DNA of 32,845 nt. Origin: Candidatus Woesearchaeota archaeon. GTDB lineage: Archaea > Nanobdellota > Nanobdellia > Woesearchaeales > UBA10216. Below are positions 11,887 to 30,070 of this stretch, one piece after another. The notes under the pieces were generated by a model, which worked only from the letters and a program-made list of their open reading frames with translations, had not been told where the DNA came from and did not search any database. The stretch lies in the NCBI GenBank assembly GCA_016188205.1, contig JACPIG010000061.1:1-32845 (forward strand), given 5' to 3'. A program made the position numbers and the translations under genes. Within the stretch, counting starts at the first letter, position 1; each line of letters starts with the position of its first letter.

Positions 11887-13551
11887 ATGTTCCTCTTAAT
11901 CCCGGGAAGGCACATAGTGAACACAAGGTTTCAGGAGGAGTACCTAAAGCGAGTTTTAGGAATGCCTGTTGGCTCACTTGAATTTCTTGACGGCAAGCCT
12001 TCTTTGCCACCCGGTGCCACCCTTGACACGATTATTTTCGCCATAACCTCAAGCAACCTTGACAATTCGCGCTTCAACCCTGTTTCATTTGTACACCGAG
12101 CTATCTCTGTTGACCGCTTTGGCAGCCAGTTTAACGGGCTTGGAGTAAGCCACAGGATTTTTGGGATTCCGGACTACGTCACCACAAACAGGTTTTCTGC
12201 GCTGACACTTAAAGAAATCCTTGAGCAGTCAGAAGGTGAGCTTGCGTTGAGCCCGGAAAATACCGTTGTAATGTGCTCAACACCTCCAGTCATAAGCATG
12301 TACAGGCAGCTTGGCTATAGCATTCTGCCCGGAGAGCTTGCATCGCTGGAACCTGAAAGATATGCGGCTATGAGGCCTATTGATGTTGTCAGGAAAATAG
12401 CAGGCGCAGGAGAAGCGTGGAGCACCAGCCCAGATGTCCTCGGCGACCTTTCTTTTTCCACTCTAAGCTTTTTCCGTGCGCATCCTGAAGTTCCAAGAAA
12501 AATGATACTCCTGTTTAACGACCCGATGCTCACTGAAGAAGGCAGCCTTACCGACACACGCGACTACGGCTCCTACGTTGTTGGAATGGGAAACATCGCA
12601 ATCGTAAGGGTGAAATATGACGACATACGGCGCGCAATAATGCCTGGCAAGATTGTTGACCACGGCTGCGCTGATGGCGCGCTCATAGAGCTTATGGCAA
12701 AGGAATTTCCAGACTCTGATTTTTACGGCGTAGATGCCTCTGCAAATATGATTGAGCGCGCAAAGCAGCGACAAACACTAAAAGCATATGGCAATGACAC
12801 GTTTGTATTTTTCAGGCAGGGAAACATCATCAGCCCGCTTTTCAAAAGCCCTGCTGCTGACACAATTACGTGCCTGTCGCTGCTGCACGAGGTATGGTCA
12901 TATGGCGCCCAGAAAAAGTCCATTGATGACTACCTTGCTTCAGTGCGAAATCAGCTTGTGACTGGAGGCAGGTTTGTCGTAAGAGACGTAGTTGGACCTG
13001 AACACGGGGAGCAAGAGGTTTACCTCTGGTGCAATCCTGCTGACGGCTCCAACGAAAATCCTTATGCGGCATTTTCAGACCAAGAGCAGCTGAAGGCGCA
13101 CCTTGACGGGCTGTCAACATATTCCCGCTTTATGAGGTTTGCTTCTGACTTTCTGGCTGAAATGAGGCAAAAAGGAAAGCGCGGGCCTGAAACAGAAATA
13201 AATTACAGAGTGGAAAGGATTGATGGCAAGGATTATTTTGTGCTCAGGCTCAAGGAAGCTGTTGAGTTCATGCTCACCAAAGACTACACAGACAACTGGA
13301 GAAGCGAGATGAACGAGGAGTTCACTTACCGCAGTTTTGGCGGGCACAAAAGAGCTCTTGAGCAGGCAGGCTTCAGGGTGATAGAAAACCCGAACGACCC
13401 GATGAGCGGCTCAAGGGCTTACACAAGCCCCTGGATTGCTGAGCACAGCTTCATGGGAAAAGCAGAGCTTTACGAAATGGGAATTGACAGAAATCTGCAC
13501 AAAATGGCTTACCCAATGACAAACATGGTACTGGTGGGTGAGAAGGCATGA
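11887..13551 (+). CDS. Fusion protein: divergent NMNAT-like nucleotidyltransferase-fold domain plus class I SAM-dependent methyltransferase
   Basis: Start at ATG 11887, about 27 nt downstream of tttataaa (11857-11864). The N-terminal LIPGRHIVNTRFQEEYL...DTIIFAITSSNLDNSRFNPVSF parallels archaeal NMNAT GRFQPFHKGH...IIIGIGSAQxSHTxxNPFTAGER, but the HxGH motif is degenerate. The MTase motif I is IVDHGCADGALIELMAKEFPDSDFYGVDASANMIERAK. Confidence 0.65.
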   Translation: MFLLIPGRHIVNTRFQEEYLKRVLGMPVGSLEFLDGKPSLPPGATLDTIIFAITSSNLDNSRFNPVSFVHRAISVDRFGSQFNGLGVSHRIFGIPDYVTTNRFSALTLKEILEQSEGELALSPENTVVMCSTPPVISMYRQLGYSILPGELASLEPERYAAMRPIDVVRKIAGAGEAWSTSPDVLGDLSFSTLSFFRAHPEVPRKMILLFNDPMLTEEGSLTDTRDYGSYVVGMGNIAIVRVKYDDIRRAIMPGKIVDHGCADGALIELMAKEFPDSDFYGVDASANMIERAKQRQTLKAYGNDTFVFFRQGNIISPLFKSPAADTITCLSLLHEVWSYGAQKKSIDDYLASVRNQLVTGGRFVVRDVVGPEHGEQEVYLWCNPADGSNENPYAAFSDQEQLKAHLDGLSTYSRFMRFASDFLAEMRQKGKRGPETEINYRVERIDGKDYFVLRLKEAVEFMLTKDYTDNWRSEMNEEFTYRSFGGHKRALEQAGFRVIENPNDPMSGSRAYTSPWIAEHSFMGKAELYEMGIDRNLHKMAYPMTNMVLVGEKA

Positions 13552-14825
13552 ATCAAGGAAAAGGCATGAAGCCAAGAACCCTGGCAGAAGCGCTCGGAAT
13601 TAAAGGGACACCTGTGATGAGCAACGAACAGATGCAGGCGTATGCCTGGGAAAGAAAGCTGGCAGACCCCGGGACACAGGGAGTGCTCCTTGAGGAACAA
13701 GTCAGTGGGCTGAGGGGAATAGTTATCCACAACGCGAAAACAACAGAGGAAGTAAGACGCGTCCTCCGGGACGAGGCGAAACTTTCCGTTGTTGAATATG
13801 CCCCGCCAAAATCATCCGAACCGCATTTCTGGGTTCCGGCGACAGGATACATACACGTGGTTAATACAAGAGGAATAACAAGACTGCTGAGAGATGAAGC
13901 ATTAGCCAGAATACTTAGTTATCTTCTCCCCAATGAGGTTGAAATTGCCATAAGCAACTATCATGGCAGCAGGCGCGAAGCCAACGACAGGTTTGAGCAT
14001 TTTGCCTATGCGCTTGTTGATGATATCTTCATGCACCTTGACAAAGCAGCAGTAACCAAAAATGGCAGGATTAACCTTCTCCTTGGCCCTTATGTGTCAA
14101 TAGATGACGCGCTTAGCACAGATGGATGCGAGATTGCTCACAGTACAGACAGTGACTACCTTAACTACAGAATTGTTCTTGCGGGCACATCAGAAGGGAA
14201 GGAAGTAGTGGTTAATTTTGACTATATCTTCGCTGACCAGGCAAAGGACGTTCTGCACAAGCTGTACAAGGGGGTTGCTGCGGAATTCAGCAGGCAGGGC
14301 ATCAGCATAAACGTGCTGCATTACGGCAAGGTAGGCGTACTGGATCCGGCAACAAATGTCGGAGACATAATAATCCCCACAGGCGCTTTTGACGAGGAAA
14401 AGCTTCAATATGCGGTCAGGAGAGGAGAGCCCATACCGCAGCAATACGCTCTAAACAACCAAATCGCATCCAATCCGGATGTGAGAGCACTATTTTATCG
14501 CGCTGTCAGCGGCAGAATAAATTCAGGGGTTACGGTCAACACAAACTCCGTCCTTGAGCAGACAGCAGAAAGGCTCCGGATTGATTTAGGCGCAGGCGGA
14601 AACTGGCTTGAAATGGAATGGGCAGTAATAGCCAGCCTGTCAACAGGCTCACACAGCACATACCCCGGGACAGGGTCAATAAACCACTTCCTGGCAGGAG
14701 TCGGCTCAGACAACCCGCTAAGAGGGCAAACACTCGGAGAAACACATTACCCCCGCGAAAGGGAAGCAGAAGTTGCGAAAGCAATGATAAGGATAATACA
14801 GCATATGCCTGAGCTGGGGCTTTGA
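13548..14825 (+). CDS. PNP/UDP-fold nucleosidase or phosphorylase-like protein (AMP-nucleosidase-like C-terminal half) with an unknown N-terminal domain
   Basis: ATGA overlap with the upstream stop (13548-13551). The C-terminal half reads HYGKVGVLDPATNVGDIIIPTGAFDEE ... GVTVNTNSVLEQ ... NWLEMEWAVIASL ... FLAGVGSDNPLRGQ. This mirrors the GHCGGL..IGDYVL, TVVTTDDRNWE, IDMESATIAA and LLCVSDKPLHGE blocks of AMP nucleosidase, recalled from memory. Confidence 0.55.
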   Translation: MNQGKGMKPRTLAEALGIKGTPVMSNEQMQAYAWERKLADPGTQGVLLEEQVSGLRGIVIHNAKTTEEVRRVLRDEAKLSVVEYAPPKSSEPHFWVPATGYIHVVNTRGITRLLRDEALARILSYLLPNEVEIAISNYHGSRREANDRFEHFAYALVDDIFMHLDKAAVTKNGRINLLLGPYVSIDDALSTDGCEIAHSTDSDYLNYRIVLAGTSEGKEVVVNFDYIFADQAKDVLHKLYKGVAAEFSRQGISINVLHYGKVGVLDPATNVGDIIIPTGAFDEEKLQYAVRRGEPIPQQYALNNQIASNPDVRALFYRAVSGRINSGVTVNTNSVLEQTAERLRIDLGAGGNWLEMEWAVIASLSTGSHSTYPGTGSINHFLAGVGSDNPLRGQTLGETHYPREREAEVAKAMIRIIQHMPELGL

Positions 14826-14831
14826 GGAAAA

Positions 14832-15812
14832 ATGGCAAAAGTCACAGTAATCTTCAAGGAAAGCACGCACAAGATTTACAGCGCTTCAGACAGCGCAGGA
14901 TTACTGGCTTATATGCAAAAAGGAAGCGCACATGTGAAAGGGATGGAAGAAGCGCGTGACGAGCACGAAAGAACGCTTGAAGAAGTTATAAGGGTTATAG
15001 ACAGGCATGGAGTCGGCTGCAATGCGATATACAGGGGTGAACTCTCCGGAATGGATGAGGAAAGAAGGAGAGAGCTCATCCAAAATGCACAGCTTCTTAT
15101 TACTGTTGGAGGCGACGGCACATTCATGGAGGCATCCCACTATATCCCTGAAGGGTCAGCAACGCCCCTTCTTGGAGTTAATTCAGACCCTGCGAGGAGC
15201 ACGGCTTTCTACTCAATCGCAAACATGCAGACATTTGAAGGCATATTAGGGCAGGCACTTGAAGGGAAACTGACAAAACTTCTTCTTCCGAGGCTGAGCA
15301 TAGAGGTCAACGGAAAAAGGATTGCTGAGCTTGTAATAAACGACGTCAGGCTGAAAAACTCAGGAGATGACCTTTTCAGATACGACCTTTCCGTTGACGG
15401 CGCCGTAAAATCAGGGCTGCGCTCAGACGGAATACTGGCATGCACTCCTTCAGGATACACTGGATGGATGGTTGACTTTCCCGGAAGCATATACCTTCCT
15501 CTCGGCTCAAAAGACATGCAGTACTACTTAATGGGAAAGCCAGTGCCGCCAGAACTCGCAAAACAATCCATTGAAATCTCCTCACTGACAAGAGAGGGAA
15601 TAATGCATGTTGATGGTGTTCACGTGCAGTACGAATTCAGCATAGGTGACGTTATAAGGATAACCCCCGGAGAGCCGCTTACATTCCTCGGGGAACTTGA
15701 AGGCAAGAGGGCAGCATATGCTGCGAGAAAATTTGAAGAGCTGCTCACAGCGATACCCGTGTTTGAGCAAAGGGCGAGAGCAAACCTGGAACTGGTCAGA
15801 GGGAGGGCTTAG
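14832..15812 (+). CDS. nadK: NAD kinase
   Basis: The GGDG motif is LLITVGGDGTFM, the NDV motif is LVINDVRL, and SDGILACTPSGYTGW corresponds to DGxxxSTPTGSTAY. A GAGG site lies upstream of the ATG. Confidence 0.88.
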   Translation: MAKVTVIFKESTHKIYSASDSAGLLAYMQKGSAHVKGMEEARDEHERTLEEVIRVIDRHGVGCNAIYRGELSGMDEERRRELIQNAQLLITVGGDGTFMEASHYIPEGSATPLLGVNSDPARSTAFYSIANMQTFEGILGQALEGKLTKLLLPRLSIEVNGKRIAELVINDVRLKNSGDDLFRYDLSVDGAVKSGLRSDGILACTPSGYTGWMVDFPGSIYLPLGSKDMQYYLMGKPVPPELAKQSIEISSLTREGIMHVDGVHVQYEFSIGDVIRITPGEPLTFLGELEGKRAAYAARKFEELLTAIPVFEQRARANLELVRGRA

Positions 15813-15818
15813 CAGACT

Positions 15819-16661
15819 TTATGATAGCCTACTGTCCGTAATTGTGCGCAGCAAAATTTCCTTAAAGCCGGGGTTTACATCAGTTATTATTGACACATTT
15901 CCATACACTGCTTTTTCAGTTATTGCGCTGTCTGCGAAGTGATGCACAACAAGCGGGTCATAAAGGTATGCGCAGTCCTGCTCAGCTTTTCCCATCCAGG
16001 ACTGAGCAGCAGCATGAATGTAAGCAGAAGCTGAGGCTGGAACTCCTCCTGATTTTATCAGCCCAAAATCCTCTCTTGTCAGGGAGCTTTTCTTGCATAC
16101 TTCTGTCGTGACAATGGTTATGGGCGCTGGCGATGCAAAGACAATGTCAACAGCCTCAGGGTCAACCTTGAAGTTGTGCGCCCTGTAGTTGATGTAAAAC
16201 GCGCCAGGCGTTATAATAGCGTTGCCCATGGCGTATATGTGGCTGACAAGGGCAGGGAGGTCAGGGTACTTTTGGAAAGCCCTTGCAATGTTAGTCATCG
16301 GGCCTATTGACGCGATGCCTACATTATTCCTGCTCGCGTATATTGCTTCAGCGATTGCCTCAACACCATCCAGCCTTATGTCAAGGCTTTCAGCAGCATC
16401 CACAAAATCCGCGCCTTCATCCCCTTCCCAGTAAAGGTGCTTCTGCTTCAACGGCTTTGACTCGCCTGCAGCAACAGGAATATCTGCGCCCAGAAGCATA
16501 ACCAGCTTTTTCGCTATGCGCGCCCTGACGTAAGCGTCTCCGTGAACTGTTGTCACCAGCTTAATGTTCATCCCCAGTTTTACCGCGTACATTAATGCTA
16601 TCGCGTCATCAACATCAGTCCCTATGTCCGTATCTATGATTATGGCTTCGTCAATGCTCAT
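15819..16661 (-). CDS. Inosine/uridine-preferring-type nucleoside hydrolase (IUNH family)
   Basis: The N-terminal fingerprint is IIIDTDIGTDVDDAIALMYA (DxDxxxDD). The gene overlaps the upstream gene by 4 nt (16658-16661). Confidence 0.88.
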   Translation of the reverse strand: MSIDEAIIIDTDIGTDVDDAIALMYAVKLGMNIKLVTTVHGDAYVRARIAKKLVMLLGADIPVAAGESKPLKQKHLYWEGDEGADFVDAAESLDIRLDGVEAIAEAIYASRNNVGIASIGPMTNIARAFQKYPDLPALVSHIYAMGNAIITPGAFYINYRAHNFKVDPEAVDIVFASPAPITIVTTEVCKKSSLTREDFGLIKSGGVPASASAYIHAAAQSWMGKAEQDCAYLYDPLVVHHFADSAITEKAVYGNVSIITDVNPGFKEILLRTITDSRLS

Positions 16662-17578
16662 TTTCCATACCTCTCAGCCACAGCAGCAAAAAGGTTAAGC
16701 GCGCTGATAACTGAATCGCGCATCATGCATATGTCGTCGCCAAGCATAAAAGCCCTGTAGCCCATCCTGAGAAGATTATCAACATCGCCTATGTCCTGGC
16801 ATGACGGCTCAAGGCTTTCCGCGAGCGAAGGGAAAATCCTTGACGCAACAATGGCATTTTGCTCCTTTGCAACTATGAGCTCGCAGGCAGCAATAACATG
16901 ATGAGGCATCTTCAGCTCAGTGTAAAGGTCGCCCCTCGCAGCCATAAGCCTTGTTTTGCCTTCCGGCTTCCATAGAGTCTTGACATAATCCATTCCCTTC
17001 ACAGACTCAATCTTCTCAACAACATTGGCAGCAGAGTCAAGAGCCCTCAAGTCAGAAATGTCCTCTGGCTTCTCAACAAATGAAAGCATGTAATTATGCG
17101 CGCCAACCTTTACAGCAGCTTCAACATACCTTTTGTCAGTGTCAGTCATGTATCCCTCTATTGACAATGAAGGGTGCGGGATGTTTATTGACTCTCCCTC
17201 ACCGACAACCCTTTTCGGCCCGTCCTGCATTATGAGCCTGCTGCCGTCTGCAGCAAGAATCACAGCACTTTCCTGCCCGTCGTGGAAGTAAGCCCTCACA
17301 TTCGGCTCAACAGTTATCCTGTGGCTTATCCCGATTTCCGTAAATGGGGGGACAGCATACCCGACAACCCTTATCTGCCTGCATTTGAGGTCTATCCACA
17401 ACTCCTTTCCAAAAGTTCCAGCCTCGTGAAAAAGCCTTTTAAGCACGTCCTCAAGCGAGTCAGAGCCCTTAACAGGCATGACTGTGTTAAGCCTTATGCC
17501 TGAAACAACCTGATGGCTTAGCACGTCCCTCAGGTAAGGCGCGTACGGAGGCATTGTGACTATTGCGGTTGCTTCCAT
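16658..17578 (-). CDS. Pyruvate-kinase-like barrel protein (A and B domains only, no C-terminal regulatory domain)
   Basis: SGIRLNTVMP compares with ARLNFSHG, and WIDLKCRQIRV with DTKGPEIR. GESINIP compares with KGVNLP, MLSFVEKPEDI with ALSFVRxAxDV, and VVEKIES with IISKIEN. LMAARGDLYTEL compares with IMVARGDLGVEI. At 306 aa it is shorter than a canonical PK by about the size of the C-terminal domain (estimate from memory). Confidence 0.6.
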   Translation of the reverse strand: MEATAIVTMPPYAPYLRDVLSHQVVSGIRLNTVMPVKGSDSLEDVLKRLFHEAGTFGKELWIDLKCRQIRVVGYAVPPFTEIGISHRITVEPNVRAYFHDGQESAVILAADGSRLIMQDGPKRVVGEGESINIPHPSLSIEGYMTDTDKRYVEAAVKVGAHNYMLSFVEKPEDISDLRALDSAANVVEKIESVKGMDYVKTLWKPEGKTRLMAARGDLYTELKMPHHVIAACELIVAKEQNAIVASRIFPSLAESLEPSCQDIGDVDNLLRMGYRAFMLGDDICMMRDSVISALNLFAAVAERYGK

Positions 17579-18652: not shown

Positions 18653-18843
18653 ATTCAATACCTCTGCATTCCATATGCAAATTTACAGCAGGCTAAACTA
18701 CAGAGGGCTAAGCCAGGATTTCCTCAAGGGGGCTTTCACCTGCCAAGCCCTCCTTGGGTTCCTGAGGCATAAGCTCCTCGTAGCTGCAAATTATTTTCCG
18801 GCTCATCCCACACCTCATTCCTTTCCCTGCACGCTTTCATCCC

Positions 18844-19906: not shown

Positions 19907-20683
19907 TCAAACAGCGTGCCTTCTTTCAAAGACCTTCTCCCTTATGTCTGAAAGCCTTTGCAAAGGGTTGTCCTTATCCCAGTTAGGCCTATCCACAGGA
20001 TTGTAACGAAGCAGGCTGCTGCAAAACTCCGCAAGCTCATCAGGCACATCTGAAGGAAGCGACTTCTTTGCCACGTCACCGCCAAGAGCTGTAAGCATGA
20101 CCAGCCCTGCGCCGTAAAGGTCAGTTTCCGGAATAGGCGGCTTTCCGTCAAGCACCTCAGGAGCAACATATGCAGGTGTATATCCAACAACTTTTGAGCG
20201 GCTCGTCGGGTTAAGGACTGCAAGCCCCCAGTCAATCAGCTTTATGTCCCTTTTTTTCGGCTCAACAAGCACGTTCTGCGGCTTTATGTCTGAATGTATT
20301 ACACCGTTTGAATGCGCATAATACAATGCGCCAAGCAGGCGCTCAGTAATCCACGAAGCATCCTCAGGATGAATCCTTCCCCTTCCTGACTTAACAATCT
20401 CGTCAAGAGTCCTGCCTTCTATGTAACTTAGCACAATCATCGCGTTCCTGTCGTCAAGCCTTATGTAGTCCCTCACTGCCGGTATGGAGTGGTACTCGTA
20501 AAGCTCCCACATCACCTTCGCCTCTCTCCTTAGAAGCTCAACATCATCAGGTGTTGTGCGGATGTTCTGCTTCAGGCAAGCCAGCTCGTCAAGCATCACA
20601 TGCCTTGCAACATAAATCCTTGCAAAGCCGCCCTCGGCAAGCCTGCTTTCAATCCGATAATTCCCGATTGTTGGCATTTTCAT
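19907..20683 (-). CDS. Hanks-type Ser/Thr protein kinase (stand-alone catalytic domain)
   Basis: The Gly loop is LAEGGFARIY and the catalytic-loop region is ACLKQ ... VIHSDIKPQNVLV (HSD, so non-RD). DWG replaces DFG in KLIDWGLA, followed by YVAPEV and DLYGAGLVM. Confidence 0.9.
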   Translation of the reverse strand: MKMPTIGNYRIESRLAEGGFARIYVARHVMLDELACLKQNIRTTPDDVELLRREAKVMWELYEYHSIPAVRDYIRLDDRNAMIVLSYIEGRTLDEIVKSGRGRIHPEDASWITERLLGALYYAHSNGVIHSDIKPQNVLVEPKKRDIKLIDWGLAVLNPTSRSKVVGYTPAYVAPEVLDGKPPIPETDLYGAGLVMLTALGGDVAKKSLPSDVPDELAEFCSSLLRYNPVDRPNWDKDNPLQRLSDIREKVFERRHAV

Positions 20684-22811: not shown

Positions 22812-24865
22812 GCTGCCATCACCCCTGCAACAGCCACAGCATGAGCACCTGCAACTGCACCAGTTCCATCTTTTTGCGCACCATCCGCCCAGTCTTTCGG
22901 CACATACCTGACCATAGCAAGCACTTCTGCCTTCAGCCTTTCATAAGCAGGCATTCTTCCATTAGGCAGAATGCTTTCCCTTATGTCGTAGCCATAAGCA
23001 GACTTGCTGACGACGATTATCGGCGGGCTTTGAACGCGCTTGAACACGTTTCCTTCTGCCTTTGCAATAAACCACTCAAGGTCGCTGACAAACTCTTTTG
23101 GGTCATCCATGCCCCAGCGCCTTATGAGCTCAGTTGATATTCCGAGATTCTCCTCAAGAGCGCCCTCAATGTACCAGCGCATTATCTGCTCAGGCGATTT
23201 CCTCATGTAGTCAGTCATGGCATTGACAAACGCGCAGTGGTAGCCGAACTTTATAGGACTCACCTGACCTTCCTTCAGCTCAGGACCAGACTTTATCTGG
23301 TCATCCCTGAACCTGTACAGCCTGTCAGGAATAAGCTCTTCCGGAAGCACTTCCCTTCCGAAAATCTCTCTGTTAAGGTAACGCGCAAGCTCAAAAACCT
23401 CTGCCTTTGTCAAATCGCCAATTGGCGATAATGCCCCGCCAACATCCCCATAGAGCGTTGCGTAGCCAAGCATTATCTCATCCTTGTTGCCGTTGTTCGT
23501 GAACAAGGCGCCATACATGCCTGCAAGGTTTGAAAGAATTGCAGTTCCCCGGATTTTTGCAGCAACGTTCTCAACGTAGCTGCTCTCGGCAAGCTTCTTC
23601 CCGCTGCCGTCAAGGTCAAAGCGGTCAATAAGAGCGATGTTTGCATTTGTGAGCTCTTCTATCGGGATTTCCACGTAGCCGATACCAAGGCTTTCAGCAA
23701 TTCCTGCAGCAGCCTGCATTGTCCTTGCAGAATTAACATGTGTAGGCATATTGATGGCAAGCACCTTCTCAGGGCCAACAGCCACTGTCAGAAGAGCTGC
23801 AACAACTGCGCTGTCTATGCCTCCGCTCAGGCCTATCACGTATCTTGGCTGCTCCTGCAAGCCCATGAAATCCTTCATGTGCCTTATGCCTTCTACGATT
23901 GCCTCGTACTTCTGCGCAATCATCGGCTTCTCAAGCCTCACAACAGGGCTCCTAAAAAATTCTTCCTCATCAACAATCATGAGCTCCTGCTCATAAGCGG
24001 CTTTGCTGAGCCTGACAGGCAAGCCATCACTGTTGTAAACGGTTGAGCCGCCATCAAACGTTATGAAGTTCTTGCCAGTATTCTGAACCCCTGTGCAGTT
24101 GACATAAAGGAACGGAACAAAGCTGTTTCCTGACTCTCCCTTCAGAAACCTTATCCTCCTGTCCCTTGCAGCGTTCTTGCCGTAAGTCCAGGGAGAAGCG
24201 GAAATGTTGACAACGAGCTGCGCGCCGTTTCCTATCAGAATCCTTGTGGCGTTCTGCGCCTCGCCGTTCCTCCTGTAATCAGCACACCACAAATCCTCGC
24301 ACACCTCAAAGCCAACAGGAACCTTTTTTCCTTTTACGTCTATTACGAAAGGCTGCACGAGGTCTTCAAGCGCTGCGCCAAAATCCTTTGCAACGTCCTC
24401 TGTGGAAAAGAAATACCTCTCATCGTCAAAGAACCTGTAGTTCGGAAGCAAGGTCTTTGGCTGCACGCCTTCAGGCAGCAGATTTGTTTCCTTCAGGCGC
24501 TGTGCAGGCATGCCATTCTGGAAAACGTAAACAGCATTGTACTTCCTGCTCCTCCCATCCTTGTTCGGATGAGGCTTTTCGTCGCCAACCCTTTCATTGA
24601 TTTCCCGGTCAACAAAGATATTGCCATAAGCAACGGCAATACCATCGCTTGCCTTTCTCAGAGCCTCATTGAACTCCATCAGGCCTTCGCAGTAGTCGTC
24701 GCTGAGCCACTTGTCACCCAGAAGGTAGCCGCCAACACTCATCTCAGGGAAAGCAATAAGGTCAACGCCCTCAAGCTTTGCCCTTTCAATCATGCCAAGC
24801 ATTGCCTCAAGGTTTTTCCCTGGAGCTCCGGGCTTCACTTCCATCTGTGCAAGCGCAACCTTCAT
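22808..24865 (-). CDS. nadE: Glutamine-dependent NAD+ synthetase (CN-hydrolase glutaminase domain plus PP-loop synthetase domain)
   Basis: The nitrilase-type N-terminus is MKVALAQMEVKPG...LIAFPEMSVGGY...FEVCEDLW. The PP-loop is VIGLSGGIDSAVVAAL. ATG at 24865 is preceded by AAGGTGG. Confidence 0.93.
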   Translation of the reverse strand: MKVALAQMEVKPGAPGKNLEAMLGMIERAKLEGVDLIAFPEMSVGGYLLGDKWLSDDYCEGLMEFNEALRKASDGIAVAYGNIFVDREINERVGDEKPHPNKDGRSRKYNAVYVFQNGMPAQRLKETNLLPEGVQPKTLLPNYRFFDDERYFFSTEDVAKDFGAALEDLVQPFVIDVKGKKVPVGFEVCEDLWCADYRRNGEAQNATRILIGNGAQLVVNISASPWTYGKNAARDRRIRFLKGESGNSFVPFLYVNCTGVQNTGKNFITFDGGSTVYNSDGLPVRLSKAAYEQELMIVDEEEFFRSPVVRLEKPMIAQKYEAIVEGIRHMKDFMGLQEQPRYVIGLSGGIDSAVVAALLTVAVGPEKVLAINMPTHVNSARTMQAAAGIAESLGIGYVEIPIEELTNANIALIDRFDLDGSGKKLAESSYVENVAAKIRGTAILSNLAGMYGALFTNNGNKDEIMLGYATLYGDVGGALSPIGDLTKAEVFELARYLNREIFGREVLPEELIPDRLYRFRDDQIKSGPELKEGQVSPIKFGYHCAFVNAMTDYMRKSPEQIMRWYIEGALEENLGISTELIRRWGMDDPKEFVSDLEWFIAKAEGNVFKRVQSPPIIVVSKSAYGYDIRESILPNGRMPAYERLKAEVLAMVRYVPKDWADGAQKDGTGAVAGAHAVAVAGVMAA

Positions 24866-24893
24866 TTTGTCCACCTTCAGCCTTTAGCAGGCT

Positions 24894-25559
24894 TTAGCGC
24901 AGGTACTGCTCCAGCGCTGTTGAATCAATCATCCTGACGCCTCTTGCCACCCACGCATCTGTCGGGTCAGGGATTCCGGGCAGCCCCTTGATGGCATCCC
25001 TGACAACATAAACCTCAATCGGCCTGCCACCAATTTTCCTGTCAAGCAGCCCACCGACTGCGAAGTCAACGCAAACATTAGTTGCGACACCGTAAACAAA
25101 CACCCTCTCAGGCTTCAGAATCTCAAGCACCCTTTCAACGTGAGGCGAGCCGTGCTCCCTGTTGAAAACATCAACGTGGTCCTTGGTCAGCACAATATTG
25201 CGGTGCGACAGCACCATTTTTTCATCCAGCGTTCTGTCACGCCAGTCAAGAACATAAGCATCCCTTGGCTTTGTTGCAGGCACAAACTCTGCTCCAGATG
25301 TTCCGTACATGCAGTGATCAGGAAATGTTTTTACAAAATCAGGATTATCAGAAAGTTCCCCTGAGCCTTTCTGGTGAGAATCTGCCTGGTTTATTACAGG
25401 GACATCATAATCCTCTGCTGTTTTTGTAACCCTTTCAAGCGCAGGTTCAATCTCCTCTGCTCCAGGCACGTACAGCCTGCCGTCCTTCCGCATAAAGTCG
25501 CCAGCTGTATCCACGTTCCAAAACAATGTCCCTGCCAGCTTTTCTTCCAGTCCAGCCAT
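24894..25559 (-). CDS. pncA: Nicotinamidase / pyrazinamidase (isochorismatase family)
   Basis: LFWNVDTAGDFM is the Asp motif and VFVYGVATNVCVDFAVGGL carries the catalytic Cys. ATG at 25559 is preceded by GGTGAGGTGG. Confidence 0.87.
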   Translation of the reverse strand: MAGLEEKLAGTLFWNVDTAGDFMRKDGRLYVPGAEEIEPALERVTKTAEDYDVPVINQADSHQKGSGELSDNPDFVKTFPDHCMYGTSGAEFVPATKPRDAYVLDWRDRTLDEKMVLSHRNIVLTKDHVDVFNREHGSPHVERVLEILKPERVFVYGVATNVCVDFAVGGLLDRKIGGRPIEVYVVRDAIKGLPGIPDPTDAWVARGVRMIDSTALEQYLR

Positions 25560-25577
25560 TTTTACCACCTCACCAGT

Positions 25578-25721
25578 TCAATCCATAAGCTCAAACTCGT
25601 ATGCCTCATGTTCTCCGCGCATTGAGCCAATGCCTGTGCCAAATGCAATGAGCACCGCATACTTGCCGCTCTTTCCACGCACAGTTCCAAGCTGCTCCAT
25701 TCCCTGCGTTACCTTCACCAT
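25578..25721 (-). CDS. Unannotated 47-aa ORF between pncB and pncA
   Basis: ATG at 25721 is preceded by GGAGGGATGCAGG, and TGA is at 25580-25578, 18 nt before the pncA ATG. Translation is MVKVTQGMEQLGTVRGKSGKYAVLIAFGTGIGSMRGEHEAYEFELMD. It is below the ORF-track length cutoff and sits directly behind one copy of the repeated promoter/operator box. Confidence 0.4.
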   Translation of the reverse strand: MVKVTQGMEQLGTVRGKSGKYAVLIAFGTGIGSMRGEHEAYEFELMD

Positions 25722-25760
25722 CCTGCATCCCTCCGCAACACTTCCACTAATTTTGTTGCT

Positions 25761-25790
25761 GTAATTTTTACACTTACTAAGCCATTAAAA
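25761..25790 (-). promoter_or_regulatory. Promoter/operator box copy A (internal promoter overlapping the last pncB codons)
   Basis: The minus strand reads TTTTAAtggcttAGTAAGTGTAAAAATTAC. The same TATA-like element and spacing to the AGTGTAAAAA..AC motif are seen in copies B and C. Confidence 0.5.
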
Positions 25791-27216
25791 CAGGCTCTGC
25801 ACATGCGTGCATTGCATACTTTTCCTTAAGCACTTGAACAAGCCCCTGAAGCCCTTCTGACAGCTCAACCCTGTAGCCGTCTGCAGGAGCCCTCACAGCC
25901 CTGATATCATCAGGAAGCATTCCAACGCAGGCAAGCGCGTAGCTTCTTGTTTCTTTGAGAGTCTTTCTTTCAGCAACCCTTCTTCCATCCCTCACAACCT
26001 GCTCAAGAAGCGGAACTCCTTCAACATGCTCGCCTTCAAGCGCTATTACGTCATGCAGGCATCTTCCTTCACCATCCACAACCCTGTAAACCTGCTTTTT
26101 CCCAGGCAAAGTCTGCTTGCCCTCTGAAAGCTTTATTTTAGCCCCGTCTTCGTCCTCAACAAGCTTGTAAACCCCTGATATTGCCGCAACAGGCTTTGCA
26201 GTAATCATCTCTGTGCCAACACCATAAGCATCAATCCTCGCCCCCCTCCTTCGGAGCTCCTCTATCTTGTACTCATTGAGATCGTTGCTCGCAACAATCC
26301 TTACATATCCCATGCCTTCATCGTCAAACATCTGCCTGACTTCTATAGACAGGCCTGCAAGGTCGCCTGAGTCAAGCCTTACAGCATACAGCCTTTTTCC
26401 CTCTGCCTCAAGCTCTTTTGCAACCGTGACTGCGTTCCTTGCGCCCTGAATAGTGTCGTAAGTGTCAATCAGCAGCGTTGACTTGTCAGGGAAAGTCCTC
26501 GCATAAGCCCTGAAAGCGTCAATCTCTTCCTGGAAGCTCATCACAAAGCTGTGCGCATGAGTTCCTGCAACCGGTATTCCGTATTCCATCCCTGCCTTCA
26601 CGTTGCTTGTTGCTACAGCCCCTCCAATGTATGCCGCCCTTGCACCTTCCATTGCAGCATCCTCGCCCTGCGCCCTGCGCAAGCCGAAATCCACAATAGC
26701 GGCGCCATTCGCGGCATTAACAACCCTGCTTGCCTTTGTTGCAATCATGGTCTGGAAGTTTATTATGTTCAGCAACGCTGTTTCAAGGAACTGAACCTCA
26801 GCCCTTTTCCCGGTAACCCTCAATACAGGCTCGTCTGGAAAGAAAGGCGCTCCTTCCCTTAGTGCATATATGTCACCTGTGAACCTCATATCTTTCAGAA
26901 ACTCAAGGAACGCTTCGCTGAAAGTCCCCTGCTGCCTCAGGTAGCTTATGTCTTCTGGCGTGAATTCTATACCTGTGGCATAGTCAATTGCATCCTCTAT
27001 TCCGTTCGCTATGTAGTATCCCCAATTATCAGGCAGATTCCTTATGAACAGCTCAAATGTTGCAGTGTCGTTCTTTCCATTCTCAAAGTATGCGGCAGCC
27101 ATGGTAAGCTGGTAGAGGTCTGTCAGCATGGTCTTGCCTTGCATGCTTTGAATGCCATGCATGCCCTGCTCATCCTGCGCCAGTCTTTCCAAATCAGCCA
27201 CCATACCAATCACCAT
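25777..27216 (-). CDS. pncB: Nicotinate phosphoribosyltransferase
   Basis: MLTDLYQLTMAAAYF, IVDFGLRRAQG and PVAGTHAHSFVMSF are NAPRTase-family hallmarks. Start trimmed from 27324 to the ATG at 27216, because 27217-27345 is a promoter block duplicated upstream of 29148. Confidence 0.9.
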   Translation of the reverse strand: MVIGMVADLERLAQDEQGMHGIQSMQGKTMLTDLYQLTMAAAYFENGKNDTATFELFIRNLPDNWGYYIANGIEDAIDYATGIEFTPEDISYLRQQGTFSEAFLEFLKDMRFTGDIYALREGAPFFPDEPVLRVTGKRAEVQFLETALLNIINFQTMIATKASRVVNAANGAAIVDFGLRRAQGEDAAMEGARAAYIGGAVATSNVKAGMEYGIPVAGTHAHSFVMSFQEEIDAFRAYARTFPDKSTLLIDTYDTIQGARNAVTVAKELEAEGKRLYAVRLDSGDLAGLSIEVRQMFDDEGMGYVRIVASNDLNEYKIEELRRRGARIDAYGVGTEMITAKPVAAISGVYKLVEDEDGAKIKLSEGKQTLPGKKQVYRVVDGEGRCLHDVIALEGEHVEGVPLLEQVVRDGRRVAERKTLKETRSYALACVGMLPDDIRAVRAPADGYRVELSEGLQGLVQVLKEKYAMHACAEPVLMA

Positions 27217-27222
27217 ATAGTT

Positions 27223-27345
27223 ATTGTGTTTTTTACACTTACTTTGAGCCTTAAAAACGCTCAACGCCACAATTAGTGTATAGTATACACTAACTACTAT
27301 ATAAATGTTTTGGAAATGTGGCATATATGGTATATACTGAAAGAA
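27223..27345 (-). promoter_or_regulatory. Conserved intergenic module 1: tandem TATA boxes each followed by a TAGTGTA-type operator
   Basis: attgtgttttttacact (27223-27239) is 17/17 identical to 29177-29193. ttaaaaa at 27251-27257 is TATA-like on the minus strand. A perfect 19-bp palindrome tagtgtata-g-tatacacta lies at 27274-27292. A second TATA tatataaa is at 27298-27305 and ggtatatact at 27329-27338. Confidence 0.6.
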
Positions 27346-28275
27346 CTATCGCGCCTGCCACCTTACAAGGTGCGCTTTCTGGTATGCGGGCATGATTGTT
27401 GCCGTTTTGCCTGCTGTGAACTCCAGATAATCAGACTCTATTCCGTCGCTGAAAATCACTCCGCTCTCAGGCATTTGAGACACAACCTTCAATGGATTAT
27501 TTCCTGCTGCCCTGCCCCTTATTATGCCTGTCCCTGTGATTCTTGAAGGAAAGGGATTCATCACTGTAAAGACAAGGTAATCCGAATCCCTTGGAAACGC
27601 CACCTGCTCCAACGGGCAGCTCTGATTGCCGGCAAGCGCATACGCTCCGACCATTATGGATGTCAGCCAGCCTGTTGAGCCTGCCCCTGTTGATACCAGT
27701 ATTCCGTCTGACGACTGCATTTCAGACTTTTTCCCATGCTCAATCCTGTACTTTGCCGAAACATGAGAACTCCTTCCAATATACAAGTCGTTCAATGCCA
27801 GCATTGACTGACCGTCCTCCATTACAGCCTCAGCCATTGTAATCTCCTCAAGCCCTGTTTTCCCTCCCAGAGTGTCCTCAAGACACTTCCTGAAAGTTTC
27901 CGGCCTGCATGTAGTGAAGGTGTCATCAAACCTTTCGGCGTCGGGATTGACAACGATTATAGGCTGCCCCTGCGCGTATTTTGCCACGTTCACAAACAAG
28001 CCAGGGTCTCCAACTACAACAATCAGGTCTTTTTCGGCGAACATATGTGTTGGCAGAAAGCCCTTTTCTATTACTTGCGACCGCATTGAAGAAGGAATTG
28101 CAGAAGCTGTCATTGCAACGCCCCTATGGTAAGCATCATGCGCTTCCCGGTAGCCGCTGTAGGACTCACCCCTGCTTTCAAGATAGAATTTTACCTGAGA
28201 AGCTGTTGCATGGCGGCGCAGCAGCTCCTCAAGCGGTGTATTCCTTCTTACCACGACAATCCTGTCCAGCCCCAT
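27346..28275 (-). CDS. Divergent NAD-kinase-family protein
   Basis: LIVVVGDPGLF stands in place of GGDGT. ALNDLYIG is NE/NDxxI-like. SDGILVSTGAGSTGW corresponds to DGxxxSTPTGSTAY. The gene starts 3 nt after the stop of the SPFH gene. Confidence 0.68.
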   Translation of the reverse strand: MGLDRIVVVRRNTPLEELLRRHATASQVKFYLESRGESYSGYREAHDAYHRGVAMTASAIPSSMRSQVIEKGFLPTHMFAEKDLIVVVGDPGLFVNVAKYAQGQPIIVVNPDAERFDDTFTTCRPETFRKCLEDTLGGKTGLEEITMAEAVMEDGQSMLALNDLYIGRSSHVSAKYRIEHGKKSEMQSSDGILVSTGAGSTGWLTSIMVGAYALAGNQSCPLEQVAFPRDSDYLVFTVMNPFPSRITGTGIIRGRAAGNNPLKVVSQMPESGVIFSDGIESDYLEFTAGKTATIMPAYQKAHLVRWQAR

Positions 28276-28278: not shown

Positions 28279-29148
28279 TTATCCCGCATCCCTCAGCGCA
28301 GCCAGCAGCTCTGTTGTTATTGTCAGGTTTCCCACATTGCCTCTCCTGCCCAGCTCGTAAAGTGCCAGAGCAGCAAGCTTGGCAGGAGTGTGTGCGTCAA
28401 ACGGAGCTAATCCGAGCCTGGCTGCTGCAGCTTCATATTCAGCTTTCTTTGTCGCATTCCCGCCCTGAAGCTCAATGAGTTGCTTCCTTCCTCTTTCCAG
28501 ATCATGCTCTGTTTTGAGCTCTGCCCTCTTTATTATCCTGTCCTGTTCAACAGCCGCAGCCCTTCTGCCGTAAGTTGCGGCATCTGCAAGCTTCAATAGC
28601 CCTTCCCTGTATTCTGCCCCAAGCGCTTTGGCAATATCAGGCTGTGCCTGCGGAGCGCTGAAATAAACAGCCATCACACTTATGCCCAATCCTTTCACCA
28701 CAGGGGAAGCATTCAGCGCGCCCATGACGTGCTCTGAGAGCTCTTCACTCATCCCCAGCAATTCCTCCAGCGTCTTTTCCTGGATGCACCTGCGTGCATT
28801 CGCCCTGGCTATCTCAAGCACGTGGTCCGGTAGTTTTTCAGGGTCCTCTGACAGGTAATCCCTTGTTCCTGGGTCTATGGCAAAATTATACTCTCCGAGC
28901 ACCTTCCGTGGCTCCGCAATCCGGTACAGAAATCCGCCCTGTAAGATAACTTCCTGTTTGTTCGCACTCATTTCCCTGAAATCAAAGGGCTTTTCTGCAA
29001 CATTTACAGGCACAAGCTCTATGCTGGTGTTAAACCTTAGATAGTGCCTGCCGATACCTGTCCCCTCGCCTATTGTCTTTCCCCCTGAACTGAACCTTAC
29101 ATATTCAGTCGGCTCTGCCCTGAAATAGCTTACAATGCCCATGTTCAT
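28279..29148 (-). CDS. SPFH/Band-7 (stomatin/prohibitin/flotillin-like) domain protein without an obvious TM segment
   Basis: VILQGGFLYRIAEPRKVL...LEIARANARRCIQEKTLEELLGMSEELSEHVMGALNASPVVKGLGISVMAVYFSAPQAQPDIAKAL is followed by an Ala/Glu/Arg-rich coiled-coil tail. A GGAGGGG site is upstream. The second ATG at 29142 is spaced better from it. Confidence 0.65.
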   Translation of the reverse strand: MNMGIVSYFRAEPTEYVRFSSGGKTIGEGTGIGRHYLRFNTSIELVPVNVAEKPFDFREMSANKQEVILQGGFLYRIAEPRKVLGEYNFAIDPGTRDYLSEDPEKLPDHVLEIARANARRCIQEKTLEELLGMSEELSEHVMGALNASPVVKGLGISVMAVYFSAPQAQPDIAKALGAEYREGLLKLADAATYGRRAAAVEQDRIIKRAELKTEHDLERGRKQLIELQGGNATKKAEYEAAAARLGLAPFDAHTPAKLAALALYELGRRGNVGNLTITTELLAALRDAG

Positions 29149-29176
29149 CCCCTCCGTTTTCCTGCTTTTTATTAAT

Positions 29177-29345
29177 ATTGTGTTTTTTACACTAAGTTTT
29201 TGATTTAAAAATTACTTTTCTTTCAAATAAAACGAAGTGCCTTTTTGTCATTTTTTAACCGCTGTTGCCATAGTTATTGTATGATATACACTATTACTAT
29301 AAAAATATTTCGCCAATTCACTATATAGGATATATACTCTGAGAA
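29177..29345 (-). promoter_or_regulatory. Conserved intergenic module 2 (paralog of 27223-27345, with an insertion of about 40 bp)
   Basis: attgtgttttttacact is at 29177-29193 and the TATA-like ttaaaaa at 29205-29211. A partial palindrome tattgtatgatatacacta lies at 29275-29293. tataaaaa is at 29298-29305 and ggatatatact at 29328-29338. Order and spacing match module 1. Confidence 0.6.
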
Positions 29346-29366: not shown

Positions 29367-30041
29367 TTAAACAAACACGTGAATTCTGTCCTTAAGAGCC
29401 CTGTAAGACCTGCTCCTGAACCTGTAAAGAAGCGCGGGCCTGTGAGCACCCTCCATCTTTGTCTCCCTTGCGCTGGCGAGGATGTCAAGCGCCTTAATCC
29501 TCTTCCTGAAATTCCTCTTGTCAAGCTTCTCGCCCATAACCCTCTCATAAAGCTCCTGCAGCTCAGTTAGAGTGAACTTCTCAGGCAGAATCTGCGCAGC
29601 TATGTTTGTGGTCTGGATTTCAAACCTCAGCTCTGAAAGGGCATCATTAAGAATCTTCATGTGGTCAAAGGCAAGGTTCCTGACGCTGCTTACGCCCACC
29701 CACTGCGCTTCCATCGCATCAGCCTTTGCTTCAAGCCTGAACTTCTCCGAGTCAATGAGCGCCATGAAGGCAATGCTTACAATCCTTCCCCTCGGGTCCC
29801 TGCTGACATCGCCGTAAGCTGTAAGCTTTTTGATAAAGATTCCCCTGACGCCAGTTTCCTCCTCCAGCTCCCTCAAAGCCGCCTTCTCAAGGCTTTCATC
29901 AATCTCAACAAAGCCGCCAGGCAATGCGAACTGCCCTTTGAACGGAGGGTTCTTTCTCCTGATGAGCAGAACCTGCAAAACGCCTTTGCTGACTGTGAAC
30001 ACAACAATGTCTGCTGCAACGTGGATGTTTTTCCATTCCAT
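29367..30041 (-). CDS. nrtR: NrtR-type regulator (Nudix domain fused to a C-terminal winged helix)
   Basis: The Nudix box GGFVEIDESLEKAALRELEEETGV is intact. It is followed by LAFDHMKILNDALSELR and FTLTELQELYERVMGEKLDKRNFRKRIKALDIL...HRPALLYRF, which matches the NrtR C-terminal wHTH pattern as I remember it. Confidence 0.87.
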   Translation of the reverse strand: MEWKNIHVAADIVVFTVSKGVLQVLLIRRKNPPFKGQFALPGGFVEIDESLEKAALRELEEETGVRGIFIKKLTAYGDVSRDPRGRIVSIAFMALIDSEKFRLEAKADAMEAQWVGVSSVRNLAFDHMKILNDALSELRFEIQTTNIAAQILPEKFTLTELQELYERVMGEKLDKRNFRKRIKALDILASARETKMEGAHRPALLYRFRSRSYRALKDRIHVFV

Positions 30042-30042
30042 G

Positions 30043-30070
30043 GTGTAAAACTCACATGAAGGATTTAAAT
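30043..30070 (-). promoter_or_regulatory. nrtR promoter: TATA box plus an operator-like GTG-N7-CAC site abutting the start codon (possible autoregulation)
   Basis: On the minus strand ATTTAAAT (30063-30070) lies about 25 nt upstream of the ATG at 30041. GTGAGTTTTACAC (30043-30055) resembles GTGTTTTTTACAC of boxes B and C, in the opposite orientation. Confidence 0.45.

Follow-up and report, generated by a model that had tools for sequence, protein, structure and literature searches.

Why does a DPANN archaeon keep an NAD salvage pathway, several ADP-ribose and nucleoside enzymes, a protein kinase and a truncated relative of pyruvate kinase side by side in 18 kb of DNA? The locus lies on a contig of a Candidatus Woesearchaeota metagenome-assembled genome (MAG; JACPIG010000061.1), of which a stretch of 32,845 nucleotides was analysed (hereafter the window); an Orc1/Cdc6 gene is found in the flank. 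A sequence-only reading of the window had proposed that the block between 11.9 and 30.1 kb is a dedicated system for NAD salvage and ADP-ribose recycling, and our results agree: NrtR-type operators are present at its promoters and the gene set co-occurs across Woesearchaeota. The block is a repressor-controlled gene set that rebuilds NAD from breakdown products. That reading was wrong, however, in treating a von Willebrand factor A (vWA)-like gene and a kinase gene as an embedded module, because together with the gene for a pyruvate-kinase-like (PK-like) barrel they are the most conserved part of the cluster. Domain calls were made with Pfam, NCBIfam and PADLOC profiles, AlphaFold2 (AF2) models compared by Foldseek, hhalign, and sequence and profile searches of the PDB.

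To follow the neighbourhood, we took one genome per GTDB species, which gave 247 loci with a PK-like gene, and analysed the best 80 of these 247 (55 archaeal and 25 bacterial; numbered L001 and so on). Genes were counted by BLASTP of the window proteins at 1e-5 against the open reading frames (ORFs) of each locus, so that divergent homologues may be undercounted. Among archaeal loci with a complete upstream flank (n = 29), NadE, Nudix/NMNAT and vWA-like genes were each found in 29, the kinase in 27, NrtR in 21, PncA in 19 and PncB in 16. Where the downstream flank was complete (n = 32), an NAD kinase (NADK) gene was found in 16 loci, an ADP-ribosylglycohydrolase (ARH) gene in 10, the PNP-like gene in 8, the methyltransferase fusion in 6 and a nucleoside hydrolase (IUNH) gene in 3. 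The kinase, vWA-like and PK-like genes are, with NadE, Nudix and NMNAT, the invariant core in archaea. ARH, IUNH, the PNP-like protein, the methyltransferase fusion and a pair made of an SPFH protein and an NADK-like protein are variable accessories. The extra enzymes, which had been proposed as one set, do co-occur, but the first four of these accessories are only variable companions of the core.

The module also exists in bacteria, namely in Anaerolineae/Chloroflexi, Myxococcota (including Chondromyces apiculatus DSM 436), Planctomycetota and one alphaproteobacterium, with PK-like proteins about 50% identical to that of the window. The 25 bacterial loci contained the vWA-like gene in 22 cases, NMNAT in 18 and the kinase in 2, and NadE was found in 10 of the 12 with a complete downstream flank; no homologue of pncA, pncB, nrtR, ARH or NADK was detectable in any of the 25. 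In a Chloroflexi example, genes for NMNAT (182 aa), vWA-like (321 aa), PK-like (303 aa) and NadE (541 aa) stand together among otherwise unrelated neighbours, and in Chondromyces and a Planctomycetota MAG the gene order was shuffled while the genes were still together. The PK-like gene adjoins the vWA-like gene in 50 of 55 archaeal and 22 of 25 bacterial loci. This adjacency is hidden in the window and in its closest relative (L001, PK-like protein 91% identical) because the ARH gene lies between the two; from the comparison, ARH has been inserted between them in the lineage of the window. Since most bacterial modules lack the kinase, the invariant pair is the vWA protein with the enzyme, not with the kinase.

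What kind of enzyme is the PK-like protein? It is 306 aa long and ends with the barrel. The AF2 model (pLDDT 92.7) contained the A and B domains only and matched pyruvate kinases in Foldseek at E 2e-22 with a TM-score of 0.8 and 16–18% identity, and the Pfam PK match (47 bits, cutoff 30) agrees with the earlier description as a pyruvate-kinase-like barrel without C domain. E. coli PykF aligned clearly in the B domain and in the latter half of the barrel, and the motifs RLN, DLK, KIES, ARGDL and ASR were invariant (R29/N31, D63/K65, K189/E191, D217). These are the residues that bind phosphoenolpyruvate (PEP), Mg2+ and K+ in pyruvate kinase. Because they are invariant and the alignment to PykF holds, phosphoryl transfer from PEP of the pyruvate kinase type is the most likely chemistry. 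On the other hand, the lysine of the B-domain KGVNLP motif, which contacts the nucleotide phosphates in the muscle enzyme, is replaced by an invariant glutamate (E129), and MLSGE reads MFGDD. The sequence thus points to an acceptor and a regulation that probably differ from those of the glycolytic enzyme. Since the product of pyruvate kinase is a phosphoanhydride formed on a terminal phosphate, ADP/AMP, ribose-1,5-bisphosphate, an ADP-ribose phosphate or a pyridine nucleotide are candidate acceptors. NCBIfam pyruvate kinase models reached only 58–60 bits against cutoffs of 306–432 (TIGR01064: 58 against 306.4). Scoring below the family thresholds and having no C domain, the protein does not merit the annotation as pyruvate kinase that NCBI and JGI give to its homologues. 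We detected 951 homologues, and identity was 60–70% across Woesearchaeota and Nanoarchaeota MAGs.

The partner gene had been called vWA by the sequence-only reading. Pfam, NCBIfam and PADLOC, where neither a VWA nor a TerY profile matched, and a PDB profile search gave nothing useful for this protein, whereas its predicted structure bears the call out, with Foldseek matches to integrin beta-I, vWF-A1 and the NorD vWA domain at E about 1e-6. Residues D103/T105/S107 and D208 were invariant, and the alignment places the true start at M31. The family comprises 1704 clusters at 50% identity, nearly all of them stand-alone proteins of about 320–345 aa. Six of the ten longer representatives (P0387, P0431, P0463, P0487, P0398 and P0442) carry a C-terminal U-box, an E3 ligase domain, and another (P0464) is fused to a Nudix domain. 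The fusions that we traced (the U-box protein P0387 and the Nudix protein P0464; loci L092 and L093) are each encoded by the sole gene of a contig of about 1.5 kb, and these contigs may be eukaryotic transcripts. As far as sequence can tell, the U-box fusions suggest that the vWA domain recognises proteins, and the Nudix fusion would independently link the family to ADP-ribose-type nucleotides.

The cassette is mobile. By tblastn of phage records, followed by a scan of IMG/VR, we found the kinase-vWA-PK-like trio in unchanged order in two viral contigs; no PK-like homologue was found in plasmids. In a 485-kb phage (L086; LR745208.1, 124753–143643) the trio is made up of a DnaJ-fused kinase, a vWA-like protein, which aligned to the family profile with an hhalign probability of 100%, and a PK-like protein. 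An ARH gene follows 4 kb downstream, and a Thg1-like gene, an HNH endonuclease gene and this ARH gene lie within 6 kb. In a 124-kb viral contig (L088; IMGVR_UViG_3300019487_000022) a DnaJ-fused kinase, a vWA-like and a PK-like protein are followed by a dual-specificity phosphatase (DSPc). Both phage kinases have the DnaJ (J) domain at the N-terminus and are 42–45% identical to the kinase of the window.

How is the island held under common control? Its regulator is a protein with a Nudix effector domain and a winged helix, whose match to the NCBIfam NrtR model NF050029 was 1.8e-50 (171.7 bits, cutoff 400); because this score is below the equivalog cutoff, the protein belongs to the family but does not count as closely orthologous to the bacterial members that have been characterised. 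NrtR, a family described in bacteria, binds palindromic operators of 21 bp whose core is GT-N7-AC (Rodionov et al. 2008, PMC2330246), and the window palindromes fit this published definition. We found six of them (TTAGTGTA-N5-TACACTAA; GT-N7-AC core) at the promoters of pncB, SPFH, pncA and nrtR. The core pattern GTGTA-N6-ACA had 8 matches in the window against 0.34 expected, with six of the seven distinct sites in promoter regions of the island, and the full palindrome TAGTGTA-N5-TACACTA with at most 3 mismatches was found at 5 sites where 0.40 were expected, each of them at the pncB, SPFH or pncA promoter. In both the pncB and the SPFH promoter, a TATA-like box is followed directly by operator 1, and operator 2 adjoins the start codon; operators placed in this way would block either the assembly of the archaeal pre-initiation complex or elongation. 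The weaker box over the nrtR start codon makes autoregulation possible. The minus-strand genes of the island form one regulon. The seventh distinct core match (GTGTATATCCAACA; 20176–20189, plus strand) lies inside the kinase coding region and is either a chance match or an internal site. The regulator itself keeps a perfect Nudix box (GX5EX7REUXEEXGU: GFVEIDESLEKAALRELEEETGV), and judging from this motif it may still hydrolyse ADP-ribose besides sensing it. Upstream of nrtR, a perfect 21-nt palindrome, ATACTAATTGGCAATTAGTAT (30102–30122), is unlike the NrtR box and may bind a second regulator.

The box was also seen outside the window. Over the 80 related loci there were 102 matches against 27 in shuffled sequences for the archaeal loci and 15 against 5.9 for the bacterial ones, and flanking positions not fixed by the search pattern read TTA...CTAA. 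Archaeal boxes lie upstream of pncB, nrtR, nadE, NMNAT, kinase and vWA genes. Six Chloroflexi loci (L067, L068, L069, L073, L076 and L078) have the box ATAGTGTA-N5-TACACTTA between the NMNAT and vWA genes. These observations document NrtR-type regulation in archaea with a clear operator consensus.

The genes under this control make up a salvage pathway. The Preiss-Handler set, that is PncA, PncB, nicotinate mononucleotide (NaMN) adenylyltransferase and NAD synthetase, is complete at the level of domains and motifs, with only PncB above its equivalog cutoff. The longest pncB frame starts at 27324, but the lengths of homologues and the position of the operators indicate M37/M41, near 27216. PncA matched its NCBIfam model only at 1.6e-4, and the motifs VDTAGDF, DSH, PDHCMYGTSGA and GVATNVC were read in its sequence. 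The Nudix-NMNAT fusion matched an NCBIfam NMNAT subfamily at 3e-21; its NMNAT half is 40–50% identical to the NMNAT of the bacterial module, and in most relatives Nudix and NMNAT are separate adjacent genes. The 47-aa ORF between pncB and pncA has a motif GT(V/I)RGK.G.Y.V at the equivalent position in L006, L017, L022 and L033, and a 48-aa gene is called there in L001; from this conservation, it probably encodes a genuine small protein that belongs to the regulon. Nearly all domain assignments of the sequence-only reading were confirmed by the profile and structure searches. Its view that the genes are operons and not chance neighbours also holds. The junctions are exact, with overlaps of 4 nt at 13548/13551, 16658/16661, 21654/21657 and 22808/22811 and gaps of 3 nt at 17578/17582 and 28275/28279, and the linkage recurs in related genomes, where it extends beyond pncA-pncB-nadE-NMNAT. 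All features are listed in Table 1.

Table 1 Genes and operator sites of the island, in order along the window.
Feature	Position	Strand	Support or remark
NMNAT-like N-domain, class I S-adenosylmethionine (SAM) methyltransferase and C-terminal extension, 554 aa	11887–13551	+	Pfam Methyltransf_31 6e-13, residues 273–396
PNP/UDP-phosphorylase-superfamily protein, nucleosidase or phosphorylase	13548–14825	+	PNP_UDP_1 1.2e-7, 31.8 bits, cutoff 25.1
Divergent NAD kinase	14832–15812	+	Pfam NAD_kinase 2.8e-6, 28 bits; GGDGT, IND, PSGYTGW
Inosine-uridine-type nucleoside hydrolase (IUNH)	15819–16661	-	Pfam IU_nuc_hydro 2.3e-44; DTDxxxDD motif
PK-like phosphotransferase, A (TIM barrel) and B domains, no C domain	16658–17578	-	Pfam PK 2.3e-12
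ADP-ribosylglycohydrolase (ARH/DraG family)	17582–18658	-	Pfam ADP_ribosyl_GH 2.1e-55
vWA-fold protein, unnamed family	18844–19839	-	AF2 pLDDT 85.5; MIDAS-like DVTGS...GDE, EGGGGGQ loop
Hanks-type Ser/Thr protein kinase, kinase domain only	19907–20686	-	Pfam Pkinase 6.8e-35; HSDIKPQN, DWG, APE motifs intact
320-aa ORF without assignable domain, lineage-specific	20695–21657	-	No Pfam, NCBIfam or PADLOC match
Nudix and NadM-type NMN/NaMN adenylyltransferase fusion	21654–22811	-	Pfam NUDIX 2.7e-11, CTP_transf_like 2.7e-5
Glutamine-dependent NAD synthetase (NadE)	22808–24874	-	Pfam CN_hydrolase 2e-12, NAD_synthase 9.5e-37; NCBIfam NAD+ synthase 1.9e-81
Nicotinamidase, PncA-like isochorismatase-family hydrolase	24894–25568	-	Pfam Isochorismatase 6e-12
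Conserved 47-aa ORF between pncB and pncA	25578–25721	-	91% identical in L001
NrtR-type operator TAAGTGTAAAAATTACAGCAA (minus strand)	25756–25776		After pncB stop, upstream of small ORF and pncA
Nicotinate phosphoribosyltransferase (PncB)	25777–27216	-	NCBIfam NF006696, 559.7 bits, equivalog cutoff 503
pncB promoter, two operators	27221–27292		Preceded by TATA-like TTTATATA (27297–27307 region)
pncB operator 2	27221–27241		Adjoins start codon
pncB operator 1	27272–27292		Perfect palindrome TTAGTGTATACTATACACTAA
NADK-fold protein, divergent	27346–28275	-	NCBIfam NADK 4.5e-8, far under cutoffs
SPFH/Band-7 protein without obvious N-terminal membrane anchor	28279–29148	-	Pfam Band_7 6e-12
SPFH-operon promoter, TATA-like box and two operators (29275–29295, 29176–29196)	29176–29295		Layout as in the pncB promoter
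NrtR-family regulator (Nudix effector domain and winged helix)	29367–30041	-	Pfam NrtR_WHD 4.1e-25, NUDIX 1.5e-20
Weaker NrtR-type box over nrtR start codon	30039–30059		Motif match

Taking these results together, we consider the island to be, with a probability of roughly 0.72, one supra-operon of a host-dependent DPANN archaeon: an NrtR-repressed, ADP-ribose-sensing regulon for the Preiss-Handler pathway and ADP-ribose recycling. At the observed sites, NrtR would bind the 21-bp palindromes and block pncB, the SPFH and NADK-like pair, the operon running from the small ORF through pncA and nadE to the kinase, and probably nrtR. When NAD is consumed, ADP-ribose would rise and bind the Nudix domain of NrtR, which would then be released, as expected from the NrtR family (PMC2330246). 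Nicotinamide or nicotinate could then be converted to NAD by PncA, PncB, NMNAT and the glutamine-dependent NadE along the Preiss-Handler route. In the NMNAT fusion, the Nudix half is predicted to split ADP-ribose into AMP and ribose-5-phosphate, while ARH would free ADP-ribose from conjugates, IUNH would remove the base from pyridine ribosides and NAD kinase would make NADP.

In this scheme the PK-like barrel could feed or energise NAD(P) synthesis by transferring phosphoryl groups from PEP. It might regenerate ATP, free of glycolytic allosteric control, for the ATP-hungry steps of PncB, NMNAT, NadE and NADK, or it might phosphorylate a pyridine-nucleotide intermediate or a ribose-phosphate one, the latter giving activated ribose for the phosphoribosyltransferase step. 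The vWA protein would be the binding partner or regulatory subunit of the enzyme, and the kinase its switch. That the enzyme is a PEP-dependent step serving NAD(P) synthesis is a tentative assignment, which we would not yet bet on. It is doubtful, if possible, that the vWA and PK-like proteins, joined by the kinase in archaea and phages, carry out an unrecognised enzymatic step of NAD or ADP-ribose metabolism that DPANN archaea, several bacterial phyla and large phages have in common, as a PEP-driven phosphotransferase on an acceptor other than ADP in its usual glycolytic role, with the vWA protein as an obligate regulatory subunit in place of the C domain; candidate acceptors would then be a ribose-phosphate, giving activated ribose of the phosphoribosyl-pyrophosphate (PRPP) or ADPR-PP type, AMP or a pyridine nucleotide.

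Several observations weigh against the regulon as drawn here. The plus-strand operon with the methyltransferase fusion, the PNP-like protein and NADK has no NrtR box in the window, and in the Chloroflexi loci that have the box no nrtR gene is present within 10 kb. Neither phage trio has NMNAT or NadE nearby, so the function of the trio need not be NAD-specific. NadE, NMNAT, PncA, both NADK-like proteins and NrtR all score under the NCBIfam equivalog cutoffs, and the gene counts carry the limit of BLASTP given above. NrtR binding, responsiveness to ADP-ribose and every enzyme activity are predictions from sequence.

Could the trio be an independent signalling cassette similar to TerY-P, without a role in NAD metabolism? 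Pairs of a vWA protein and a Ser/Thr kinase are known switch modules in TerY-P, the phage kinases carry a J-domain, a phosphatase gene follows in one of the two phage loci and NAD genes adjoin the trio in neither, and the many U-box fusions in the vWA family point to protein recognition. We nevertheless regard this as unlikely, because archaea and bacteria alike keep the vWA and PK-like genes together with NMNAT and NadE, also where the order is rearranged, the vWA gene in Chloroflexi and the kinase or vWA gene in some archaeal loci are immediately preceded by NrtR-type boxes, one vWA-family member is fused to Nudix, and the kinase is present in only 2 of 25 bacterial modules. It is also quite unlikely that the PK-like protein is simply the minimal glycolytic pyruvate kinase of the organism, placed here by genome compaction. 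DPANN genomes are reduced, all catalytic residues of pyruvate kinase and the A and B domains are retained, and the databases annotate the homologues in this way; against this stand the missing C domain, the scores far under the NCBIfam cutoffs, the glutamate in place of the conserved B-domain lysine, the near-constant adjacency to the vWA-like gene, the copies in phages, and orthologues about 50% identical in the same module of large-genome bacteria such as Chondromyces apiculatus. Bacteria of this kind generally have ordinary pyruvate kinases.

The sequence-only reading had also left the choice between a conflict of the NADase type and a scavenging lifestyle. As a conflict or recovery system, the island would rebuild NAD after an NADase-type attack or undo foreign ADP-ribosylation, in the manner of the phage NAD reconstitution pathways or of the ARG-centred anti-ADP-ribosylation systems. 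NrtR senses ADP-ribose, the product of NADases (PMC2330246); an ARH without a cognate ADP-ribosyltransferase (ART), a Nudix-type regulator and a vWA protein resemble the ARG-centred systems (Iyer et al. 2022, PMC9503650); and the trio occurs near ARH in a 485-kb phage and again in a 124-kb viral contig. Conflict genes evolve fast, however, whereas the core proteins keep an identity of 60–70% across Woesearchaeota and of about 50% between archaea and bacteria. No NADase, TIR, SIR2, ART or nuclease effector gene is present in the window, and PADLOC yielded only generic kinase and methyltransferase domain matches in it. ARH varies between loci and is present in 15 of 55 archaeal ones, a phosphatase partner like that of the ARG systems is lacking, and there was no plasmid match. 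A conflict role for the whole island is thus improbable. The evidence leans to housekeeping salvage, nothing was found that marks the island as a defence system, and it most likely serves cofactor maintenance rather than defence; from the phage trio, a conflict-related role is still conceivable. As for a chance assembly without common function, compact genomes do pack unrelated genes tightly, but the set is kept in dozens of species-level genomes, an operator motif is common to several promoters and reading frames overlap, so that this explanation is hardly tenable.

Of the known systems, an NrtR regulon combined with the Preiss-Handler pathway describes the island best. As in the bacterial NrtR regulons (PMC2330246), a regulator with Nudix and winged-helix domains stands beside NAD salvage genes, ADP-ribose is the presumed effector, and 21-bp GT-N7-AC palindromes lie upstream of pncB, pncA, nadE and NMNAT-type genes. 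Here, in contrast, the host is a DPANN archaeon, the boxes adjoin TATA-like archaeal promoter elements, NrtR keeps the perfect Nudix box, and the regulon also includes the Ser/Thr kinase, the vWA and PK-like proteins, the SPFH and NADK-like pair and a small ORF, none of which belongs to the textbook NAD pathways. The Nudix-NMNAT fusion resembles NadM-Nudix, the bifunctional NMN adenylyltransferase/ADP-ribose pyrophosphatase, in having both domains in one chain, and the NCBIfam models match it at 7e-19; its domain order is reversed, with Nudix N-terminal and NMNAT C-terminal, and the scores are under the family cutoffs. The PK-like protein shares with pyruvate kinase (EC 2.7.1.40) the TIM-barrel A domain, the B domain, the overall fold and the invariant PEP, metal and K+ sites. 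It differs from that enzyme by the low identity and the two motif changes given above, by the absence of the C-terminal oligomerisation and allosteric domain, and by being paired in the genome with a vWA protein within an NAD regulon. In the literature that we searched, whose coverage was incomplete, we found no description of NrtR regulation in DPANN archaea, of the NMNAT-vWA-PK-like-NadE module or of the SPFH and NADK-like pair.

The remaining candidates fit less well. The TerY-P triad, as summarised in PMC11090510 from Anantharaman et al. 2012, consists of a TerY vWA protein, a Ser/Thr kinase and a PP2C phosphatase. Judged by that summary, the likeness lies in a MIDAS-like vWA protein beside a Hanks-type kinase in a three-gene cassette that is also found on mobile or viral DNA; here, on the other hand, the third gene is PK-like instead of PP2C, VWA and TerY profiles fail to match the vWA protein, the kinase has neither a zinc ribbon nor an OB fold, and the kinase is dispensable in bacteria. 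No PP2C was found in the window or in the related loci profiled with Pfam. Because PP2C is lacking and no TerY-like sequence was detected by the profiles, the island is not classed as a TerY-P triad. The phage sets NARP1 (Adps and Namat), NARP2 (Nampt and Nmnat) and NARP3 (PnuC and NadR) are likewise compact and rebuild NAD, from nicotinamide, ADP-ribose or nicotinamide riboside, whereas the route of the island is deamidated (PncA, PncB, NadE), cellular and repressor-controlled. Profile searches of the window detected no PRPS-like Adps, Namat/Nampt, PnuC or NadR, and we rejected an assignment to NARP1, NARP2 or NARP3, their component genes being absent. NARP-type genes do occur in relatives: L005 has PnuC and a NadR-like ATPase, and L089 has a gene resembling NAMPT. 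The ARG-centred anti-ADP-ribosylation systems (PMC9503650), which are characterised by ARG without ART, a Nudix or WYL regulator, a coupled phosphatase, a chaperone and rapid evolution, are only partly similar. They share ARH/ARG without ART, a Nudix-type regulator and a vWA protein, but here there is no phosphatase partner of the rhodanese-type, calcineurin-like, HD or HAD kind, ARH is optional, the core is NAD biosynthesis and the sequences evolve slowly.

The accessory genes are divergent in varying degree. Two NAD-kinase paralogs had been proposed, and both do have the NADK fold. The one on the plus strand had been called canonical, and it has GGDGT, but its sequence is divergent, with NCBIfam NADK models reaching 3e-11 (43 bits against a cutoff of 316); in 25 of 55 archaeal loci an NADK gene lies directly downstream of the PK-like gene. 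The second reads GDPG for GGDG, with ALND and TGxGSTGW conserved, and has 2375 homologues; because of this replacement its activity as NAD kinase is uncertain, although the identical NCBI protein is named 'NAD(+)/NADH kinase'. The SPFH gene is always paired with this NADK-fold gene. The pair is kept in L048, L089, L090 and L091, it stands in relatives beside Nudix, NAMPT-like, ARH, NadE or NrtR genes, and NrtR boxes precede SPFH in the window and in L091. Two genes after ARH in L089 (304 and 346 aa) were compared with the PK-like and vWA-like families and rejected as divergent members. In archaeal loci ARH is mostly downstream of the PK-like gene, and IUNH, whose gene has an ATGA overlap with the PK-like gene in the window, occurs in 6 of 55.

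In the methyltransferase fusion, the N-domain had been called NMNAT-like. It matched the NMNAT profile of the cluster with moderate support (hhalign 86.6%, E 4e-6), but the HxGH motif is lost, being replaced by T..FQ. Full-length homologues are present in 11 related loci, and the alignment places the start at M19. Neither this N-domain nor the PNP-like protein had sequence relatives in the PDB by phmmer or profile. The PNP-like gene overlaps the fusion gene by ATGA. Because PNP_UDP_1 includes AMP nucleosidases as well as methylthioadenosine/S-adenosylhomocysteine (MTA/SAH) nucleosidases, clearance of SAH for the methyltransferase would be as plausible a role as that of an AMP nucleosidase. Upstream of this plus-strand operon, an exact 18-nt direct repeat, TTGACAAGTTATTTATAA, was found at 11709–11726 and 11775–11792 and may represent duplicated promoter elements or the site of another regulator.

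Other features concern the edges and the relatives of the island. A 494-aa ATPase-like ORF at 10183–11667 on the minus strand has a GC content of 0.35 against 0.50 for the island. It is missing in the syntenic L001, in which serS and the methyltransferase-fusion gene are immediate neighbours, and it appears to have been inserted recently at the island edge. The 320-aa ORF was present, among the related loci, only in L001, and we rejected the idea that it is a decayed NadA, though NadA fills that slot in L003. That NadA gene is inside the cluster (7063–8088), and in the same locus a radical SAM protein gene and a gene of the inositol-monophosphatase family come after the PK-like gene. L005 has a NadB-like flavoprotein, PnuC and the NadR-like ATPase inside its cluster (14282–15913 and 11696–13436). 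Genes of de novo synthesis and of riboside salvage are therefore both found within the cluster in relatives. No tRNA genes or Rfam matches were found in the window, where scans for bacterial sigma-70 promoters and intrinsic terminators stayed at chance level, as expected for an archaeon.

The finding of note is narrower than the 18-kb island of the sequence-only reading: it is the vWA/PK-like cassette, which crosses domains and is borne by phages. NAD salvage counts among the best-charted cofactor pathways, yet this strongly conserved combination of a truncated PK-like enzyme and a vWA partner, with or without the kinase, has neither a family name nor an assigned function and adjoins NMNAT and NadE in two domains of life. 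If the cassette performs or controls a step in NAD(P)/ADP-ribose recycling, it would add a new enzyme and a layer of regulation to a textbook pathway, and it could help to explain the supply of NAD in reduced-genome DPANN archaea. It would also give a lead on why large phages carry the trio, since depletion and reconstitution of NAD are central to the conflict between phages and their hosts.

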